64,000 nt of DNA, taken from sequence record OQ703618.1; one strand, given 5' to 3'. Made by a program: the position numbers and the translations under genes. The notes below the pieces were generated by a model. That model was not told the origin of the DNA and searched no databases. It was given only the letters and a program-made list of their open reading frames with translations. Source of the DNA: Escherichia phage GADS24. Shown in pieces: positions 8,366-62,734 of the stretch. Position 1 is the first letter of the stretch; every line of letters starts with the position of its first letter.

Positions 8366-8404
8366 AGATAGGACTACTATATCATAGTCCTACTTAGTTG
8401 TAAA
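8366..8404 (-). promoter_or_regulatory. Early promoter/stem-loop cassette
   Basis: Minus strand ATTTAC..GGACTATG-ATATAG-TAGTCCTATC (inverted repeat around -10). Confidence 0.45.
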
Positions 8405-18046: not shown

Positions 18047-18544
18047 TTAAGCTTTACGAGGAGACACATAGCGAGTGATTTCAGATTCTTTAACAACTCG
18101 GAAGTCACCTAAGAATACGATATTGTATAACTTTTCACCATCTTCAACCCATTGGTCACTAATGAAGCCACACATAATATCAGTTTTGCTTGGATATCCG
18201 TATTCGTCGATGTAATCAAATTCTTTATCGGTTATAAATTCAACGCCTTTGCAAAGGGCCCATTTAAACTGTGTAGTAGGCTCAACGATATCGTTTGAAG
18301 CAAAGTGTGCAGGTGCAACTTCTTCGCTTGAAGCAAATTGGACTCGTATATGTTTTTCCAGGAATTTAGGACTTACGTAAGCATACTGGGCATCTTGTCC
18401 GCCAAAACTAGGAATGATTCGAACTTTAACTTCTTTAATACGTCCCATGCCATTTGTGCGAAGTCCGACAACTTCAACCAGACGACCTGCGGCTTTAGAC
18501 CGGGATGCAGTTGATACACGTTTAATTTCACCAATAGTAATCAT
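18047..18544 (-). CDS. Paralog family member B (about 165 aa from internal ATG)
   Basis: Same motifs as 17618-18037; trimmed to MITIGEIKRV with SD; own promoter cassette upstream. Confidence 0.55.
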   Translation of the reverse strand: MITIGEIKRVSTASRSKAAGRLVEVVGLRTNGMGRIKEVKVRIIPSFGGQDAQYAYVSPKFLEKHIRVQFASSEEVAPAHFASNDIVEPTTQFKWALCKGVEFITDKEFDYIDEYGYPSKTDIMCGFISDQWVEDGEKLYNIVFLGDFRVVKESEITRYVSPRKA

Positions 18545-18561: not shown

Positions 18562-18604
18562 TTAAGTTGAATTCATTATACTCCATCCATCCTTGGATGT
18601 ACAA
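18562..18604 (-). promoter_or_regulatory. Early promoter cassette (CCAAGGATGG spacer family)
   Basis: Minus strand TTGTAC-ATCCAAGGATGGATGGAG-TATAAT. Confidence 0.5.
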
Positions 18605-18606
18605 CA

Positions 18607-19101
18607 TTAATTTAGAATATTAACTACTGCACTACGTGGAACCACACTAAAGTCACCGGCATGAACAACGTTCAGAAGTTCAACCCCATCTTCAATCCAC
18701 TGGTCAGTTACCCAGCCACTTACCGGTCCAGCGAATGGTCGACGAATTGAAACTGCTTTACACAACAAGTCTGTAGGCTCAATAGGCTTAATCAGAGTAC
18801 CGTACATACAAGCGATATCCATATCAAAGTGGAGACCATCTTTAACAGGTGCTTCTTCAATCAACAGTTCAAAGTCAGTGCTTGGAATGGCGGTAGTAGA
18901 AATTGTACCGTGTGAATTTTTAATTTCTAAGAATAACCAAGGGCCTTCAGCTTGTTTGATGAAGTTAACAATAGTGAAACTATTACCTTGAGTGGCACCT
19001 AAAATTTCACAAAACTTTTCATAAGCTCGCACTGAAGCACCGTACCAGTTGATTTGTTTTTCGTCTTTCAGGATGTAAGTAGCCGTAGTATTGATATTCA
19101 T
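18607..19101 (-). CDS. Paralog family member C (164 aa)
   Basis: C-terminal WIEDGVELLNVVHAGDFSVVP motif shared with members A and B; own promoter cassette. Confidence 0.55.
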   Translation of the reverse strand: MNINTTATYILKDEKQINWYGASVRAYEKFCEILGATQGNSFTIVNFIKQAEGPWLFLEIKNSHGTISTTAIPSTDFELLIEEAPVKDGLHFDMDIACMYGTLIKPIEPTDLLCKAVSIRRPFAGPVSGWVTDQWIEDGVELLNVVHAGDFSVVPRSAVVNILN

Positions 19102-19119
19102 AATGTTTTTCCTGTTTGG

Positions 19120-19162
19120 TTAAGATAGAAAGATTATACTCCAACCATCCTTGGTTGTAAAC
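19120..19162 (-). promoter_or_regulatory. Early promoter cassette (CCAAGGATGG spacer family)
   Basis: Minus strand GTTTAC-AACCAAGGATGGTTGGAG-TATAAT-CTTTCTATC. Confidence 0.55.
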
Positions 19163-19167
19163 TGATT

Positions 19168-19845
19168 TTATCGCTGTTTTACACTTAACGGGTCAGGATT
19201 CTCAGGGACATCTTCAAGGCCAAGCGCATAACGCTGAGCATATTTTAACATCAAAATATCTTTAGCACAATCATGAATACTATCATGGGCAACGAATCCT
19301 TTTAGCGTACCCATCGGTAATGGACACATACTTAATCCTCGTGTCAACGAGTAAGCTTCGATTGCCGTACGAATATCGCGTTGAGCCCAGAATTTAACCG
19401 GTTCTAATTTATCGGTATCAATCTCTGGTTCAAGAACACCTTCATCACGATAGAGGTCACGAATCAAATCGACCAATATCGGGAAGTCAAAGCTCATACC
19501 ACGGCACCACATCTGTGATTTCCATTGGTCAACTTTATTAGCTCGGCAATAATCTAAAAAGATTTTAATGCCTTCAAGCGTAGTGACATCGTCTTCAGAC
19601 GGAGCTAGGTTTTTACGTGCTTCTGCTGATTGTTCTTTCCACCATTTCATAGTGGATTTAGCGAAAACTCGCTTCCCTTTCTGAGAAGCTAAATTAAATT
19701 TAATTCGCTTACCTCGTTGAACAAGTTCTTCAAATGATTCAACAACTTCAGGGTCGGAATTATATGCAATAACCGCAAGGTCAATAACAGCCGCTTTTGA
19801 TGTATTGCCGAATGTTTCAAAATCTATAATAACATCAGTGCTCAT
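19168..19845 (-). CDS. dexA: Exonuclease A (DexA), DnaQ-like 3'-5' exonuclease
   Basis: 225 aa (T4 DexA 227 aa); N-terminal IIDFETFG exonuclease motif; adjacent to dda. Confidence 0.8.
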   Translation of the reverse strand: MSTDVIIDFETFGNTSKAAVIDLAVIAYNSDPEVVESFEELVQRGKRIKFNLASQKGKRVFAKSTMKWWKEQSAEARKNLAPSEDDVTTLEGIKIFLDYCRANKVDQWKSQMWCRGMSFDFPILVDLIRDLYRDEGVLEPEIDTDKLEPVKFWAQRDIRTAIEAYSLTRGLSMCPLPMGTLKGFVAHDSIHDCAKDILMLKYAQRYALGLEDVPENPDPLSVKQR

Positions 19846-32842: not shown

Positions 32843-33986
32843 GGTCGTTTTCTATATCTGCTGCAGAAGGAGCATCAGAAGTTTTAACCGGAACTTTAGT
32901 TGTTGCTTTGCAATTAATAAGGTCATTAACAGCGTCATCAACTTCTTTAATAGAAGAGATAGCACCTAGTTTATATTTAGTTTCAATTGCATCTCGGAAA
33001 GGTTTGTGTTTAAACAATGGTCCCCAGAATTCTACACAATCAGTAGCTTTAGCACGCCATGATTTTTCTTCACGAATCATTTCACCTGTTTCTTCGTCAA
33101 GGAATTCACGAGCATACCAACCAGCTTTAGGCTTAACCACAAAACCGATTTCAGTTGCCATTTCTAACAAGCCGCTGAATGGGTCAATACCGCCATCAAA
33201 ATTAACCGTGATTGGGAAAGTAGATTTCTCTTTAACTGTACGAGATTTTTCTGCTTTCAACGTGAAGTCATAACCGGTCAATTCTGTACCTTCTTTAACC
33301 TGACGTTTAGAGATAAAGAATACAGTGTTAGCAGAGTAAAGAATACCTGTACCACCACCCATAATCTCTTTAGGATATAGACCGCCGATTTCCATTGCTG
33401 TATGGTTGATTGCAACACACGGAATATCTTTAATAGTCAGATAAGGAGTCACAATGCGGAACAGAGATTTAAGTGCCTTAGCACGAGACATATCACCTAC
33501 AACTTTCTCGTTCAACGCATCTTCGGTTTCTTTCTTAGATGCAGTATTACCGATTGAATCGATAAAGATAATAACTTTATCGCCGCGTTCAATCGCGTCA
33601 AGCTGATTAGTCATATCAACTTTAAGTTGTTCTACAGATTGAATCGGAGTATGAACTACACGGTCCAAATCAACACCCATTGAACGGAAGTAAGATTCTG
33701 AAGCACCGAATTCTGAGTCATAAAACAAACAGATTGCATCTTTATATTTCTTCATATATGCTGCAACCATGGTCAGTCCAAACAACGTTTTAAAGTGTTT
33801 AGAAGGAGCAGCAAAAATAGTTAAGCCTGATTGCAACCCAGCATTCAGTGCACCACCTAATGCAATATTCAACATCGGAATACGAGTAGGGACTTCATCA
33901 CGATTATTAAACAGCTTAGACTTAGTCAAGTCTGCAGTCATTTTAGAAGTAGAAGCTTTAATCAGACGAGATTTTAAATCAGACAT
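32814..33986 (-). CDS. uvsX: UvsX recombinase (RecA-like)
   Basis: 390 aa; RecA core; N-terminus MSDLKSRLIKASTSKMTA resembles recalled T4 UvsX. Confidence 0.9.
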   Translation of the reverse strand: MSDLKSRLIKASTSKMTADLTKSKLFNNRDEVPTRIPMLNIALGGALNAGLQSGLTIFAAPSKHFKTLFGLTMVAAYMKKYKDAICLFYDSEFGASESYFRSMGVDLDRVVHTPIQSVEQLKVDMTNQLDAIERGDKVIIFIDSIGNTASKKETEDALNEKVVGDMSRAKALKSLFRIVTPYLTIKDIPCVAINHTAMEIGGLYPKEIMGGGTGILYSANTVFFISKRQVKEGTELTGYDFTLKAEKSRTVKEKSTFPITVNFDGGIDPFSGLLEMATEIGFVVKPKAGWYAREFLDEETGEMIREEKSWRAKATDCVEFWGPLFKHKPFRDAIETKYKLGAISSIKEVDDAVNDLINCKATTKVPVKTSDAPSAADIENDLDEMEDFDE

Positions 33987-43389: not shown

Positions 43390-43449
43390 TTAATTTCCTT
43401 TAGACGAGTTATTGTCTTTTGTTTGTTGATGAACTTATTATACTCCAAA

Positions 43450-59430: not shown

Positions 59431-59735
59431 TATAATGTTCTCTCAAATTTGTGGAAGCATTTACGGCATTTCAATTTCAAGTTATCAGTAGTCCAGTTAA
59501 CAAGTTGGACTTGGATAGTTCCACATTCTGGGCATGGATGTTTTGCTGCCGATTTGGCAGCATTTTCACGCCGTTCAACCATTTTCATGATTTCGTTCCA
59601 TGCCGGAGGAACGAACTCTTCTTCACCGTGGATTTTATCTCGCTGAACAAATTCAATCTTTGAACTATCGTCAATAAACTTAACCAAGCTATGATTAGTG
59701 CTCATATCAATATCCTCTAAAAGACGTAGTTTCAT
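59430..59735 (-). CDS. Small zinc-ribbon protein (101 aa)
   Basis: CPEC..(18)..CRKC four-cysteine arrangement. Confidence 0.5.
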   Translation of the reverse strand: MKLRLLEDIDMSTNHSLVKFIDDSSKIEFVQRDKIHGEEEFVPPAWNEIMKMVERRENAAKSAAKHPCPECGTIQVQLVNWTTDNLKLKCRKCFHKFERTL

Positions 59736-60685
59736 TATAAAACCTCAATGGCATTTCGTAAACCGTCCGCTTTCGCATTCAGAGCTTTTAACGATTTAGT
59801 TTGTTCTGCAATCTGGGCTTCGACTTCTTTCAGACGAGATTTGAGGTATTCGCGTTCTTCTCTTAAATTATCAACTTTTTCTGCTTTAGGTTCTTTAATA
59901 GACTTAGGTTTATACGTATTAGGGTTCTTCAGCTTAATTTGAATACGAGAACTGAATAACATTGAACCGTTATCTTCGGTTTCGCTGAACATTTCAACAA
60001 CATCCATAGTCTGTAGTATCATACGAAGTTTATAAGACAATGAACGAACGGTTTTGTTATGCTTATTAATTTCTTCAGCTTTCATGGTACCGAGATTACG
60101 TGAGTAGTAATAAGGAACCTGGATATCAATTGATAATGATGCGTTACCATTACCGGTTGGTTTGAATACTGCAGTAACCCAATCTTTAACATGAACTTTA
60201 TTTGTACGACCATCACCGCCCGTGAATAATTTACGAGAATGTTTAAAAAGCATATTCACTTGGTTATTGAATTCACAAGCAAATTTATCAGCAAATTTAG
60301 TTTCAGGAATGGTAGATAACCAATCAGCCAAATGAGTCTTTTTAACATCATTAACAATAGTGAATTCAACCAAATCAGTTTTAGATGTCACAGATTTAAT
60401 AAAGCTTGGCTTCATAAAGTTTTTAATGTTATCACGAGCCACAGTAGAAGATAATAAACGAGAACGTTTGAACCATTGAAGCAGTGTCCCTAATGAATGA
60501 GAATACGCATTCTGAGTATCTTTACAGATATGATTTTCTTGACCTGTGTATGTACCAAAATCTCGAAGAATACCACTTACTACATCTCGGTGTGGAACAT
60601 CAAATCCTAATGAACCGGAAGCACGTTGGGCATGAACGTTAGCGATAAGACCTGCAAAATAATCAATGTAATGTGAACGTGTCAT
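59735..60685 (-). CDS. Hypothetical protein (316 aa) with C-terminal coiled coil
   Basis: Long ORF with own promoter cassette; C-terminal heptad-like region EEREYLKSRLKEVEAQIAEQTKSLKALNAK. Confidence 0.6.
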   Translation of the reverse strand: MTRSHYIDYFAGLIANVHAQRASGSLGFDVPHRDVVSGILRDFGTYTGQENHICKDTQNAYSHSLGTLLQWFKRSRLLSSTVARDNIKNFMKPSFIKSVTSKTDLVEFTIVNDVKKTHLADWLSTIPETKFADKFACEFNNQVNMLFKHSRKLFTGGDGRTNKVHVKDWVTAVFKPTGNGNASLSIDIQVPYYYSRNLGTMKAEEINKHNKTVRSLSYKLRMILQTMDVVEMFSETEDNGSMLFSSRIQIKLKNPNTYKPKSIKEPKAEKVDNLREEREYLKSRLKEVEAQIAEQTKSLKALNAKADGLRNAIEVL

Positions 60686-60699
60686 AATATTTTCCTCTC

Positions 60700-60743
60700 G
60701 TTAAGATAGAAAGATTATACTCCAACCGTCCTTGGTTGTAAAC
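60700..60743 (-). promoter_or_regulatory. Early promoter cassette (CCAAGGACGG spacer family)
   Basis: Minus strand GTTTAC-AACCAAGGACGGTTGGAG-TATAAT-CTTTCTATC. Confidence 0.5.
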
Positions 60744-60747
60744 TGAT

Positions 60748-61683
60748 TTATGGTTTTAATGCATTCATTGCGTTAAAAAGTTTAGAGTACTGCAACTGGA
60801 GCTTGGTAACTACTTGTTGAGCATCACGAAGCTTAGCTTGTGCTTTATCAAGTTCAACAGACAGTTGGTCCATAGTGCCCTTGATTTGATTATAATAGTA
60901 ATCTTCGGCAGGAAGAAGACCATTAGATATTTCCAGTTTAGTCGACGGTGAAGTGTATATAGATGGAGCAGTAGAATATGCACCTAGAACTTCAGCATTG
61001 CCAATTGGGGTTGCAGTAATTGACGCTTCGAACGTCGCATTTTCCTTTTTAAGATTTTGATAGTATTCAGAGTCTTTGTGCCACCATGGCGCAGGAACCT
61101 TTTTACCAATAGATACACGAGCCTGGATAGCGATATGGCCCTTATTCTTGATAGGGTTGATAATATTAAGCTCGCGAGAATAAATTGCTTTAATCTGGTG
61201 GATATTATCACCTAACACTTCCAACGCTTGGTGGAATACACGAGCAACGTTATCATTCTTAGGTTTATACGTAAGAGTGAATTCGTTCTCACTGATAACC
61301 ATAATTTCCAACTTATCGTAAGTATATTTCAAATGTTTCATGTTAATTGCTTGAGGACGAATACGAGAAGCAATGGCCATCAGATTGTTAAGGTTATTCC
61401 GGAACTGCTTAGCGAAATATTGTCCTTCACCACCAATACAAAAATTACGAAGTTTCTGTTTAGCTAATAAACGGCTGAACTCACCATTTTTAATGAACTC
61501 TTTAACGGGTGTGTTAGTAACGCATTCAAATTGAGTAAACTTACGAGAAGTAATCCCATAATATGAACAGACTTCCTCAATCTCTTCAGGAGTCTTTACA
61601 GGCATACGGATAGGATTAGGTCCTGGAGTATATGCGTTCGAGGTAAATTCTTTGATAAGTTCTCTACGTGTAATAAAAGCCAT
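60748..61683 (-). CDS. Hypothetical protein (311 aa) with C-terminal coiled coil
   Basis: Long ORF with own promoter cassette; C-terminal LDKAQAKLRDAQQVVTKLQLQYSKL. Confidence 0.6.
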   Translation of the reverse strand: MAFITRRELIKEFTSNAYTPGPNPIRMPVKTPEEIEEVCSYYGITSRKFTQFECVTNTPVKEFIKNGEFSRLLAKQKLRNFCIGGEGQYFAKQFRNNLNNLMAIASRIRPQAINMKHLKYTYDKLEIMVISENEFTLTYKPKNDNVARVFHQALEVLGDNIHQIKAIYSRELNIINPIKNKGHIAIQARVSIGKKVPAPWWHKDSEYYQNLKKENATFEASITATPIGNAEVLGAYSTAPSIYTSPSTKLEISNGLLPAEDYYYNQIKGTMDQLSVELDKAQAKLRDAQQVVTKLQLQYSKLFNAMNALKP

Positions 61684-61738: not shown

Positions 61739-62734
61739 TCATTCCTTAAGAAGTTTTACTACTTGAATAAGATTAGCTCGTTCTGTTTTATTTTTACCGT
61801 TTAAGCCTGCTAATCGTGAGATTTCATCGTCAGTCTGTTGAATAGTTACATTAAGTTCGTTAATCAAAGCTTCAAAGTATTTGATTTGCTCAGCATGTTT
61901 TGATTCAAATTTCTGAACCGGAATAACGTCTTGGTTCAGTTCATCAATAAGGTCTTTAAGAGCATCTTCTTGGTTGATATCATATTCAACTTCTTTTATT
62001 TCTTCAACGAGCTCGTCTTTATATCTAACGTCTTTTAGTCCTGGAGCTGGTCCTGAAATCTCTTCTTTAAGAGTACAAACATATACATTACGGTATCTAA
62101 TGCCGTCTCGCTTGATATCAACTTCGTCAATAAATCCACAATGTTTAAGTCCAGAGCCGATTATGTCAAAATATCCTTGACGTTGTCCTTCAAACGTTAC
62201 ACGAACTACTAAGACAGTTTTGCCACCAACCTTTTGAAGCTCACATTTATAAAAGTCTGTTGAACCTGAATAACGCGGATGAGTTTTAAAGTTCATCTGA
62301 CGATCTAGGCCCATTTGTAAGCGTGCTGATACGGCCATAAAACGTGTTTGGTTCTCGTTAAGATGAGCAACAATCCGTTTCAAAGGCATTTTACCCTGTT
62401 CACGACCGAACAAATCAGTACGTCCTAGATTACGCAGAATGTTGTTAGAGTTAATCATCGACAGAACGTTAAGTTTATTCAGCGCGCTGAAGATTCCATC
62501 GGCCATTGATTTTCCGTAACCTTTACACGCTTTAATAAGCGCTCGCGGGAGATTAGTATAGATTTCAGACGGCATATGAAAATCAAATTTACTAGTCAGT
62601 AATTGATGAACTTGGATAGCAATTTGCTCATAATTAAGTGCTCTGCGATCGTTATGGTCTTTAAACCACACTTTAATCTGTGAAGCACATAAACCGTTAA
62701 TTTCATGTTTTACCGCATCAGATGTAATGCTCAT
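61739..62734 (-). CDS. Hypothetical protein (331 aa) with C-terminal coiled coil
   Basis: Long ORF with own promoter-like element; acidic/coiled C-terminus. Confidence 0.6.
   Translation of the reverse strand: MSITSDAVKHEINGLCASQIKVWFKDHNDRRALNYEQIAIQVHQLLTSKFDFHMPSEIYTNLPRALIKACKGYGKSMADGIFSALNKLNVLSMINSNNILRNLGRTDLFGREQGKMPLKRIVAHLNENQTRFMAVSARLQMGLDRQMNFKTHPRYSGSTDFYKCELQKVGGKTVLVVRVTFEGQRQGYFDIIGSGLKHCGFIDEVDIKRDGIRYRNVYVCTLKEEISGPAPGLKDVRYKDELVEEIKEVEYDINQEDALKDLIDELNQDVIPVQKFESKHAEQIKYFEALINELNVTIQQTDDEISRLAGLNGKNKTERANLIQVVKLLKE

Follow-up and report, generated by a model that had tools for sequence, protein, structure and literature searches.

A promoter family of Escherichia phage GADS24 with a stem-loop in its spacer, probably a Mosigvirus subfamily of PeSL-type early-promoter cassettes

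The present analysis concerns a family of promoters in a stretch of 64,000 nucleotides from Escherichia phage GADS24 (OQ703618.1), hereafter the window, in which four full copies share most of the sequence between the -35 and -10 boxes and a fifth, related copy has a short spacer. This family is probably a Mosigvirus subfamily of the repeated cassettes of early promoter and stem-loop (PeSL) known from T-even-type phages, and the subclass found here is one in which the stem-loop lies wholly inside the spacer. The conservation of the spacer, which is real and non-random, had led an initial annotation, made from the sequence, to propose a binding site for a shared regulator. That proposal is poorly supported and is not needed, given the covariation within the element, its shifted position in one relative, the recombination between copies and the existence of known PeSLs.

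According to the model that we favour, each full copy would be a near-consensus host sigma-70 promoter for one of four immediate-early genes (motB.1, motB, nrdC.3 and nrdC.5), which are non-essential and lie in plastic regions, and its 17-bp spacer would comprise an inverted repeat (5-6 bp, AGGA loop) ahead of GGAG. The likeness of the spacers would have two causes. The copies, being homologous, would exchange by homologous recombination, which would give rise to gene conversion, to mosaics and to the deletion of the gene located between tandem copies. In addition, selection would act on the base-pairing of the stem, substitutions being compensated. The copies presumably fire as immediate-early promoters, and the stem would act as a single-stranded nucleic acid. 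Its most likely place of action is RNA that reads through from early promoters upstream; this would be the obvious site, because the spacer is absent from transcripts begun at the copies themselves.

PeSLs were defined in phages RB49 and phi1 as cassettes in which an early promoter is combined with a stem-loop, the latter often situated between -35 and -10. They are repeated in hyperplastic regions, form several subclasses and mediate modular shuffling, recombination between them leading to deletions, insertions and mini-circles, with one crossover mapped in the loop (PMC2839356). They were extended to the T4/PST pair, for which promoters of the type TTTACW-N17-TAYWAT and short AGNA-loop-TCNT stems are described (PMC4122927).

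The five elements reported in the initial annotation were confirmed at their positions, and all of them, like the early genes, are read on the minus strand. The four full copies are as follows.

19161-19133, minus strand: copy 1, promoter of the motB.1-like gene, TTTACA accaaggatggttggag TATAAT (-35 box 19161-19156; 17-nt spacer 19155-19139; -10 box 19138-19133; inverted repeat CAACCA-AGGA-TGGTTG 19157-19142; GGAG 19142-19139)
18603-18575, minus strand: copy 2, promoter of the motB-like gene, TGTACA tccaaggatggatggag TATAAT (-35 box 18603-18598; -10 box 18580-18575; inverted repeat CATCCA-AGGA-TGGATG 18599-18584; GGAG 18584-18581)
60742-60714, minus strand: copy 3, promoter of nrdC.3, TTTACA accaaggacggttggag TATAAT (inverted repeat 60738-60723, with A.C as its loop-closing pair; GGAG 60723-60720)
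61738-61710, minus strand: copy 4, promoter of nrdC.5, TGTACA accaaggacggttggag TATAAT (inverted repeat 61734-61719; GGAG 61719-61716)

By their anatomy, copies 1-4 appear to be early promoters of the sigma-70 type. They match the sigma-70 consensus at 11, 10, 11 and 10 of 12 positions, respectively, always with a 17-nt spacer, they are the top consensus matches of their regions, and a Shine-Dalgarno sequence and an ATG follow about 25-35 nt downstream. Copy 1 is also annotated as 'promoter', as a prediction, in the record of phage NBG1. The spacer common to the four copies reads (A/T)CCAAGGA(T/C)GG(T/A)TGGAG, 15-17 of its 17 positions being shared. A motif search across the window with the pattern CCAAGGAYGGWTGGAG gave four exact matches, all on the minus strand, whereas shuffled sequences contain on average 0.63 matches to the same 16-mer with up to three mismatches. 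Unrelated spacers are seen in some 20 further early-type promoters of that strand. The claim that the conservation exceeds what RNA polymerase needs is borne out. The complete genome of RB69 harbours the same four full copies, the short copy and one partial copy, which precedes ORF145c (TGTACA agcaccaaggatggtga TACTAT), and no others. The -10 box of the motB copy differs among close relatives, being TATAAT in the window, TATAAA in RB69 (8365-8337) and TATAGT in NBG1 (about 8437); the spacer stem-loop and GGAG are constant in the three phages despite this variation.

With regard to the symmetry of the spacer, a palindrome of the CCAAGG/CCTTGG type had been noticed. A symmetry does exist, but the relevant element is an interrupted inverted repeat, CA(A/T)CCA-AGGA-YGG(T/A)TG (that is, C-A-N-C-C-A / AGGA / Y-G-G-N-T-G). 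The hexamer was rejected as a functional palindrome, since CCAAGG/CCTTGG occurs 21 times in the window, mostly within genes, and the covarying positions lie outside it. The variable T/A of GG(T/A)TGGAG pairs with the base immediately 5' of CCAAGG, so that copy 2 differs from copy 1 by a compensatory change of A to T and of T to A in the stem. The minimum free energy fold shows a 5-6 bp stem inside the spacer with an AGGA or AAGGAC loop. Further forms of the element were found in relatives.

RB69, promoter of ORF145c: CACCA-AGGA-TGGTG
T4, upstream of nrdC.3 (an orthologous gene, 56% amino acid identity): AGCCA-AGGA-TGGCT
T4, nrdC.4 promoter: CCACA-AGGA-TGTGG
T4, JS98 and P896, downstream of nrdC.8: TACCA-AGGA-TGGTA
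Mosigvirus, downstream of nrdC.8: ACCCA-AGGA-YGGGT
JS98, nrdC.4 promoter: ATCCA-AGGA-CGGAT
P896: TTCCA-AGGA-TGGAG

Overall, the stem variants comprise AACCA/TGGTT, ATCCA/TGGAT, CACCA/TGGTG, AGCCA/TGGCT, TACCA/TGGTA, ACCCA/YGGGT and CCACA/TGTGG. Stem positions thus vary and yet stay complementary, which is the signature of nucleic-acid pairing rather than of base-specific contacts with a protein. The covariation count covered 12 distinct instances, which represent four genera, paralogous and orthologous copies being taken together. Standard pairs occupy 87.5% of the cells, and four of the six pairs have changed on both sides. The number of cells with a double change was 14, compared with 5.3±1.6 after shuffling, and none of 500 shuffles reached the observed value; the covariation score was 0.515 versus 0.123. 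When the 3' partner was slid by 1-3 columns as a control, only 19-44% of the cells were paired. Occurrences of CAAGGAYG inside genes showed no complementarity in the three flanking positions.

Several points weigh against this interpretation. The instances were gathered with the seed CAAGGAYG, so that the loop and the two inner pairs were fixed by the search, and the copies are kin, which inflates the shuffle statistics. The stem of one natural copy, the chimeric promoter of phage ESCO47 described below, is broken (AACCA/CGGAT), and the C variants carry an A.C mismatch closing the loop on the sense strand. The CCA-AGGA-YGG core and GGAG are conserved more strongly than pairing alone demands. 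Finally, the hairpin is weak: its energy lies between -6 and -9 kcal/mol, and its z-scores relative to shuffled sequences range from -0.5 to -1.7. No U-tract was found after the stem-loop, and no terminator-like site was called at the copies. The wobble pairs give conflicting indications on the strand of action, as the A.C closing pair corresponds to G.U on the antisense strand and the U.G pair of P896 favours the sense strand.

Two other functions of the element were considered and rejected. An intrinsic terminator is at odds with the lack of a terminator call at the copies and with the ordinary folding energy. A mini open reading frame (ORF) in the spacer, AUG-GUU-GGA-GUA-UAA, would have its Shine-Dalgarno-like AGGA directly abutting the AUG, and the C variants (ACG) have no start codon. 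A search of the whole window against Rfam matched no family. A hairpin with the same loop, GCC-AAGGAC-GGC, but without promoter hexamers is present in NBG1 at about 30308 on the minus strand; it is intergenic, with gene 43 on one side and the next ORF on the other.

The second line of evidence is provided by relatives in which copies have recombined. Copies 1 and 2 are in tandem, 558 bp apart, as are copies 4 and 3, 996 bp apart. In phages phi25-307 and PTE-Eco05, motB.1 is absent and a single chimeric promoter is located between dexA and motB. The chimera of phi25-307 is copy-1-like through TTTACA and copy-2-like from TCCAAGG on, whereas that of PTE-Eco05 is copy-1-like through GGAGTATAAT and has a copy-2-like leader; the crossover points of the two phages therefore differ. 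In ESCO47, nrdC.5 is absent, and the single remaining promoter has the upstream flank and left stem arm of copy 4, a different right arm and a leader of the copy-3 type. Its mismatched stem is consistent with a crossover in the loop. As chimeric promoters are located exactly at the deletions of motB.1 and nrdC.5, the copies recombine, and the three chimeras represent three independent deletions between tandem copies, with crossovers at different points inside the shared 29 bp. Smaller mosaics, namely the leader gaatctatcttaac in L128/L129 and a patchy T/C polymorphism among the copies of close relatives, point to ongoing exchange.

The copied unit is a promoter cassette and not a gene. The longest match links copies 1 and 3.

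19119-19168, minus strand: extended cassette around copy 1; its identity to 60700-60749 is 98% over 50 nt
60700-60749, minus strand: extended cassette around copy 3, partner of 19119-19168

This similarity spans about -45 to +17, including the leader ctttctatcttaac, although the two copies are 41 kb apart with unrelated genes downstream. Copies 2 and 4 have essentially only the 29-bp promoter in common, and, more generally, similarity between copies ends within a few tens of nucleotides. Recent duplication of whole genes, including identical coding flanks, could have accounted for the conserved spacers. It was rejected, since the MotB-like paralogs are only 35-40% identical to one another and NrdC.3, NrdC.5 and NrdC.6 show no mutual similarity by BLASTP. 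The largest direct-repeat families of the window (D1-D3, D4, D5 and D8) are all early-promoter cassettes, and the family studied here is D4, with four copies.

The fifth element had been described as a degenerate copy.

62792-62770, minus strand: short-spacer copy, upstream of nrdC.6, TTTACC-caaggacgggt-TATAAT (inverted repeat ACCCA-AGGA-CGGGT 62789-62776)

A related copy is indeed present, but its hexamers are 11 nt apart instead of 16-18 nt, so that it fails the spacing of a sigma-70 promoter. It is orthologous to TTTATACCA-AGGA-TGGTATAAT in T4 (upstream of nrdC.7), JS98 (about 2431) and P896, and is for this reason an old, stable variant; these orthologues rule out a recently decayed promoter. 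In T4, JS98 and P896, the two promoter-like hexamers of the short element are the arms of an 8-bp stem, and TGGTATAAT agrees with an extended -10 box (TGnTATAAT); the TG is missing from the element of Mosigvirus.

Beyond the PeSL-type cassette, three explanations of the conserved spacer have to be weighed. That the spacer is an operator, bound by a DNA-binding regulator of the phage or the host and controlling a small regulon (motB.1, motB, nrdC.3 and nrdC.5), appears very unlikely to us. The spacer is a classical position for a repressor, the four copies and those of RB69 show no variation in the core CCAAGGAYGG..GGAG, which genome-wide only these promoters have, and the shut-off of T4 early promoters is described as incompletely understood (PMC3014915). 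Nevertheless, the outer stem positions change identity while retaining complementarity, and the element is displaced by 4 nt within the spacer of the T4 nrdC.4 promoter and is also present where the hexamers are 10-11 nt apart. Across the copies compared, the combination of a fixed position with base identity in both half-sites, as expected of an operator, was not found. Moreover, motB of T4 has a promoter of a different type, and recombination between copies suffices for their near-identity. MotB, which is encoded downstream of two of the copies, would be the obvious candidate for the regulator, but it is reported to bind DNA non-specifically, and its knock-down to leave the T4 transcriptome unchanged (PMC7827196); on the same grounds, autoregulation by MotB is unlikely. 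It is likewise very unlikely that the CCA-AGGA-YGG and GGAG core is recognised, as DNA or as a hairpin, by a dedicated trans-acting protein that switches off or tunes the four-gene immediate-early regulon (MotB-like and NrdC.x) in phages of the RB69 type. If it were, such a factor would make the as yet unexplained way in which T-even early promoters are shut off accessible to experiment.

At the opposite extreme, the family might be a neutral repeat, whose likeness comes from recent copying and gene conversion only and whose stem-loop has no selected function. The 50-nt match between copies 1 and 3 at 98% identity, the patchy polymorphism and mosaic leaders of close relatives, which reflect ongoing exchange, and the thermodynamically unremarkable hairpin are all in line with it. 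However, pairing has been kept through at least six double substitutions at orthologous sites of Tequatrovirus, Dhakavirus, the Gaprivervirus-labelled P896 and Mosigvirus, and the leaders and flanks of these sites have diverged, their proteins being 56-85% identical. We consequently regard neutrality as unlikely. A third explanation, which is compatible with the PeSL-type cassette and which we would call possible but doubtful, is that GGAG and the -10 box double as a site for the RegB/S1 endoribonuclease in read-through RNA (...hairpin-GGAGUAUAAU). The same 10 nt would then have two roles, in DNA as the -10 region and in RNA as a cleavage site; cleavage would hit read-through mRNA and spare promoter-proximal transcripts, which do not contain the site. 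RegB, together with ribosomal protein S1, cuts GG^AG before an A-rich, C-poor heptamer, the consensus of strong sites being GGAGRAYARAA (PMC3014915; PMC1702504). The T4 motB leader, which serves as model substrate, has U at positions 5 and 7 and A at positions 9 and 10 (PMC1702504); from the base changes described there, its site is GGAGUAUAAAA. This T4 site (cgtGGAGTATAAAatc...ttaacaa..gagaga..ATG; cgtGGAGTATAAAatctttttaacaagtgagagataactATG) aligns with GGAGTATAA(T/A) of the Mosigvirus motB promoter, the aligned stretch reading ggatGGAGTATAAAtcttaacaacaaagagagaaaaattATG in RB69 and having TATAAT in the window. In addition, the hairpin and GGAGTATAAA are kept upstream of T4 nrdC.3 despite poor hexamers (TTTAAA, 18 nt, TATAAA, without the final T of the -10 box), the RB69 motB promoter likewise has TATAAA, and the window has six occurrences of GGAGTATAA, all of them intergenic and on the early strand, compared with about 0.8 expected for the two strands taken together. 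In the sequence of the copies, GGAGUAUAAU(C/A/G), positions 6, 7, 8 and 9 fit and the U at position 5 is tolerated. In contrast, a U at position 10, as the copies have it, is uncommon in cleaved sites (3 of 26), and position 11 is, in two copies, a C, which the consensus almost excludes. Furthermore, a sixth base pair of the stem is predicted to involve the first G of GGAG, and structure inhibits RegB. The hairpin itself would be left unexplained, as cleavage requires no sequence 5' of GGAG (PMC1702504) and the hairpin is also kept in copies without GGAG (the T4 nrdC.4 promoter and the short-spacer elements). Apart from the promoter family, GGAGTATAATA immediately follows a GGGAC-UUCG-GUCCC hairpin in the region that separates regA from gene 43, at 43446 on the minus strand; RB69 has the same sequence at position 33407. 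A -10 box, a RegB-type site and a portion of the leader of gene 43 are possible readings of it.

Concerning the genomic setting, a 3-kb piece around the reported promoters shows 98% identity with Escherichia phage JN02 and 96-97% with further RB69-like phages, HX01 among them, and the gene order in the window is that of RB69 (genus Mosigvirus, T4-type). The genes of the motB locus are listed in their order on the minus strand.

21168-19855, minus strand: dda, first in order
19845-19168, minus strand: dexA, after dda
18607-19101, minus strand: motB.1-like gene between tandem copies 1 and 2, 164 amino acids, matching Pfam motB C-terminally
18047-18544, minus strand: motB-like gene, 165 amino acids, Pfam motB match (1.6e-37), downstream of copy 2
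18037-17618, minus strand: third MotB-like gene, with a Pfam motB match

The Pfam motB family thus matches all three MotB-like proteins of the window. The promoters had been said to precede the triplicated paralogs; this is correct for two of the three, the third having no copy of its own. At the second locus, the order on the minus strand is nrdC.8, nrdC.6, nrdC.5 and nrdC.3, then nrdC.2, nrdC.7 and nrdC.

63324-62797, minus strand: nrdC.8, first in order
61739-62734, minus strand: nrdC.6, 331 amino acids, downstream of the short-spacer copy
60748-61683, minus strand: nrdC.5, 311 amino acids, DUF7235, between tandem copies 4 and 3
59735-60685, minus strand: nrdC.3, 316 amino acids, 56% identical to T4 NrdC.3, downstream of copy 3

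The relatives used for comparison were taken from the GenBank phage collection. Of some 150 genomes of Mosigvirus, about 147 encode NrdC.8 with at least 90% identity. A search of IMG/VR with NrdC.5 gave only two loci, and a loose IMG/VR pattern, CCAAGGAYGG-N0-8-TATAAW, gave at least 120 unrelated chance matches and was discarded. A feature unrelated to the promoter family is located at 803-1147 on the plus strand, where tandem coding repeats of 27 nt (CATNCTCATACNGT...GGT) specify repeated His-x-His motifs, probably in a tail-fibre gene.

Other early promoters of the window also exhibit stem-loops: about nine of them show significant ones that overlap the -10 box, with z-scores of -2.6 to -6.4. 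Families D1-D3, with up to 10 copies (minus-strand -35 boxes starting at 8404, 7892, 29045, 23043, 17033 and 52836), consist of early promoters whose AGGAC/GGTCT...GTCCT/AGACC stems overlap the -10 box and whose leader, (A/G)(G/A)(T/A)CCTATCAA, is conserved. They correspond to the AGNA-loop-TCNT type, as far as this is described for T4/PST. Family D5, at 30563-30536, 17612-17585 and 63379-63352 (minus strand), has a 12-14 bp inverted repeat between spacer and leader, the 3' arm of which holds the Shine-Dalgarno sequence GGAG (e.g. tctccagtagttg...caactactggaga), with -21 to -24 kcal/mol and z-scores of -5.6 to -6.4. In these promoters, the Shine-Dalgarno sequence would be sequestered in read-through transcripts and free in promoter-started ones. 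Finally, two copies of TGTACA aactcttgagagc(a/g)gag TATAAT gctctc, 84% identical over 57 nt, are located at 7631-7603 and 52536-52508 (minus strand). It is a promoter of this type, and not of the CCAAGG type, that precedes motB in T4 (TTTACA aactcttgggaccagag TATAAT ggtccc).

If the assignment to the PeSL-type cassettes is right, the repeats are working parts of accessory-gene reshuffling in T4-type phages and not a hidden regulon. The tandem copies mark the exact places where motB.1 and nrdC.5 have been lost in natural relatives. The compensatory changes would mean that the small stem-loop itself is kept by selection, and no such test is reported in those portions of the published PeSL work on which we draw (PMC2839356, PMC4122927). 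The overlap of the -10 box with a candidate RegB-type site would bear on how read-through transcripts are told from promoter-proximal early ones. For annotation, the family is a caution that a conserved spacer in a phage promoter need not be an operator. The points that seem worth keeping are the compensatory evolution of the stem-loop, the three natural deletion chimeras and the orthology of GGAG-TATAA to the classical RegB site.

When compared with the PeSLs of RB49 and phi1 (PMC2839356), the promoter family of the window shows the same architecture, in which the stem-loop is placed between -35 and -10 of a strong sigma-70-like early promoter and the 3' end has a Shine-Dalgarno sequence with a start codon. 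The stem-loop is seen here in the minimum free energy fold and in the covariation. As in those phages, the cassettes are repeated in plastic regions before small non-essential ORFs, here in the motB and nrdC.x regions, and several subclasses coexist in one genome. Likewise, recombination between tandem copies removes the intervening ORF, as in phi25-307, PTE-Eco05 and ESCO47, with crossovers inside the cassette, including the loop. The hexamers are TTTACA/TGTACA in the window and TTGACA in the PeSLs of RB49. In contrast to the stable G-tract/C-tract hairpins of RB49, which were shown to terminate transcription, the stem of the window has 5-6 bp and an AGGA loop, is weak and is not followed by a U-tract. 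Effective termination or attenuation was not apparent in silico from folding energy, z-score, U-run or terminator calling at the copies. A terminator role of the RB49 type is unlikely here, because the hairpin is weak and has neither a U-tract nor a terminator-like site.

The PeSLs described for T4/PST (PMC4122927) come from the same phage subfamily and share the promoter consensus TTTACW-N17-TAYWAT, short AGNA-loop-TCNT stems of variable sequence and insertions or deletions in plastic regions of the nrdC/ndd type. Their stems, as presented there, mostly pair around the promoter (AGNA...TCNT), whereas the stem-loop of the window lies wholly in the spacer with AGGA as its loop; to judge from the part of that study considered here, Mosigvirus (RB69-type) genomes lie outside its analysis. 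With regard to the RegB/S1 site of the T4 motB leader, GGAGUAUAAAA, for which alone cleavage is documented (PMC1702504), the motB copy aligns with it and the other copies match 9-10 of its 11 positions. The T4 site is located in a transcribed leader downstream of a different promoter, whereas the candidate site of the window overlaps the -10 box and would be present only in read-through RNA. Finally, the copies resemble the canonical T4 early promoters, which are used by the host sigma-70 holoenzyme, in their hexamers, spacing, strand, position before early genes and AT-richer upstream region. In contrast, the spacers of canonical T4 early promoters differ from one another, whereas 15-17 of the 17 spacer positions are common to the copies described here.

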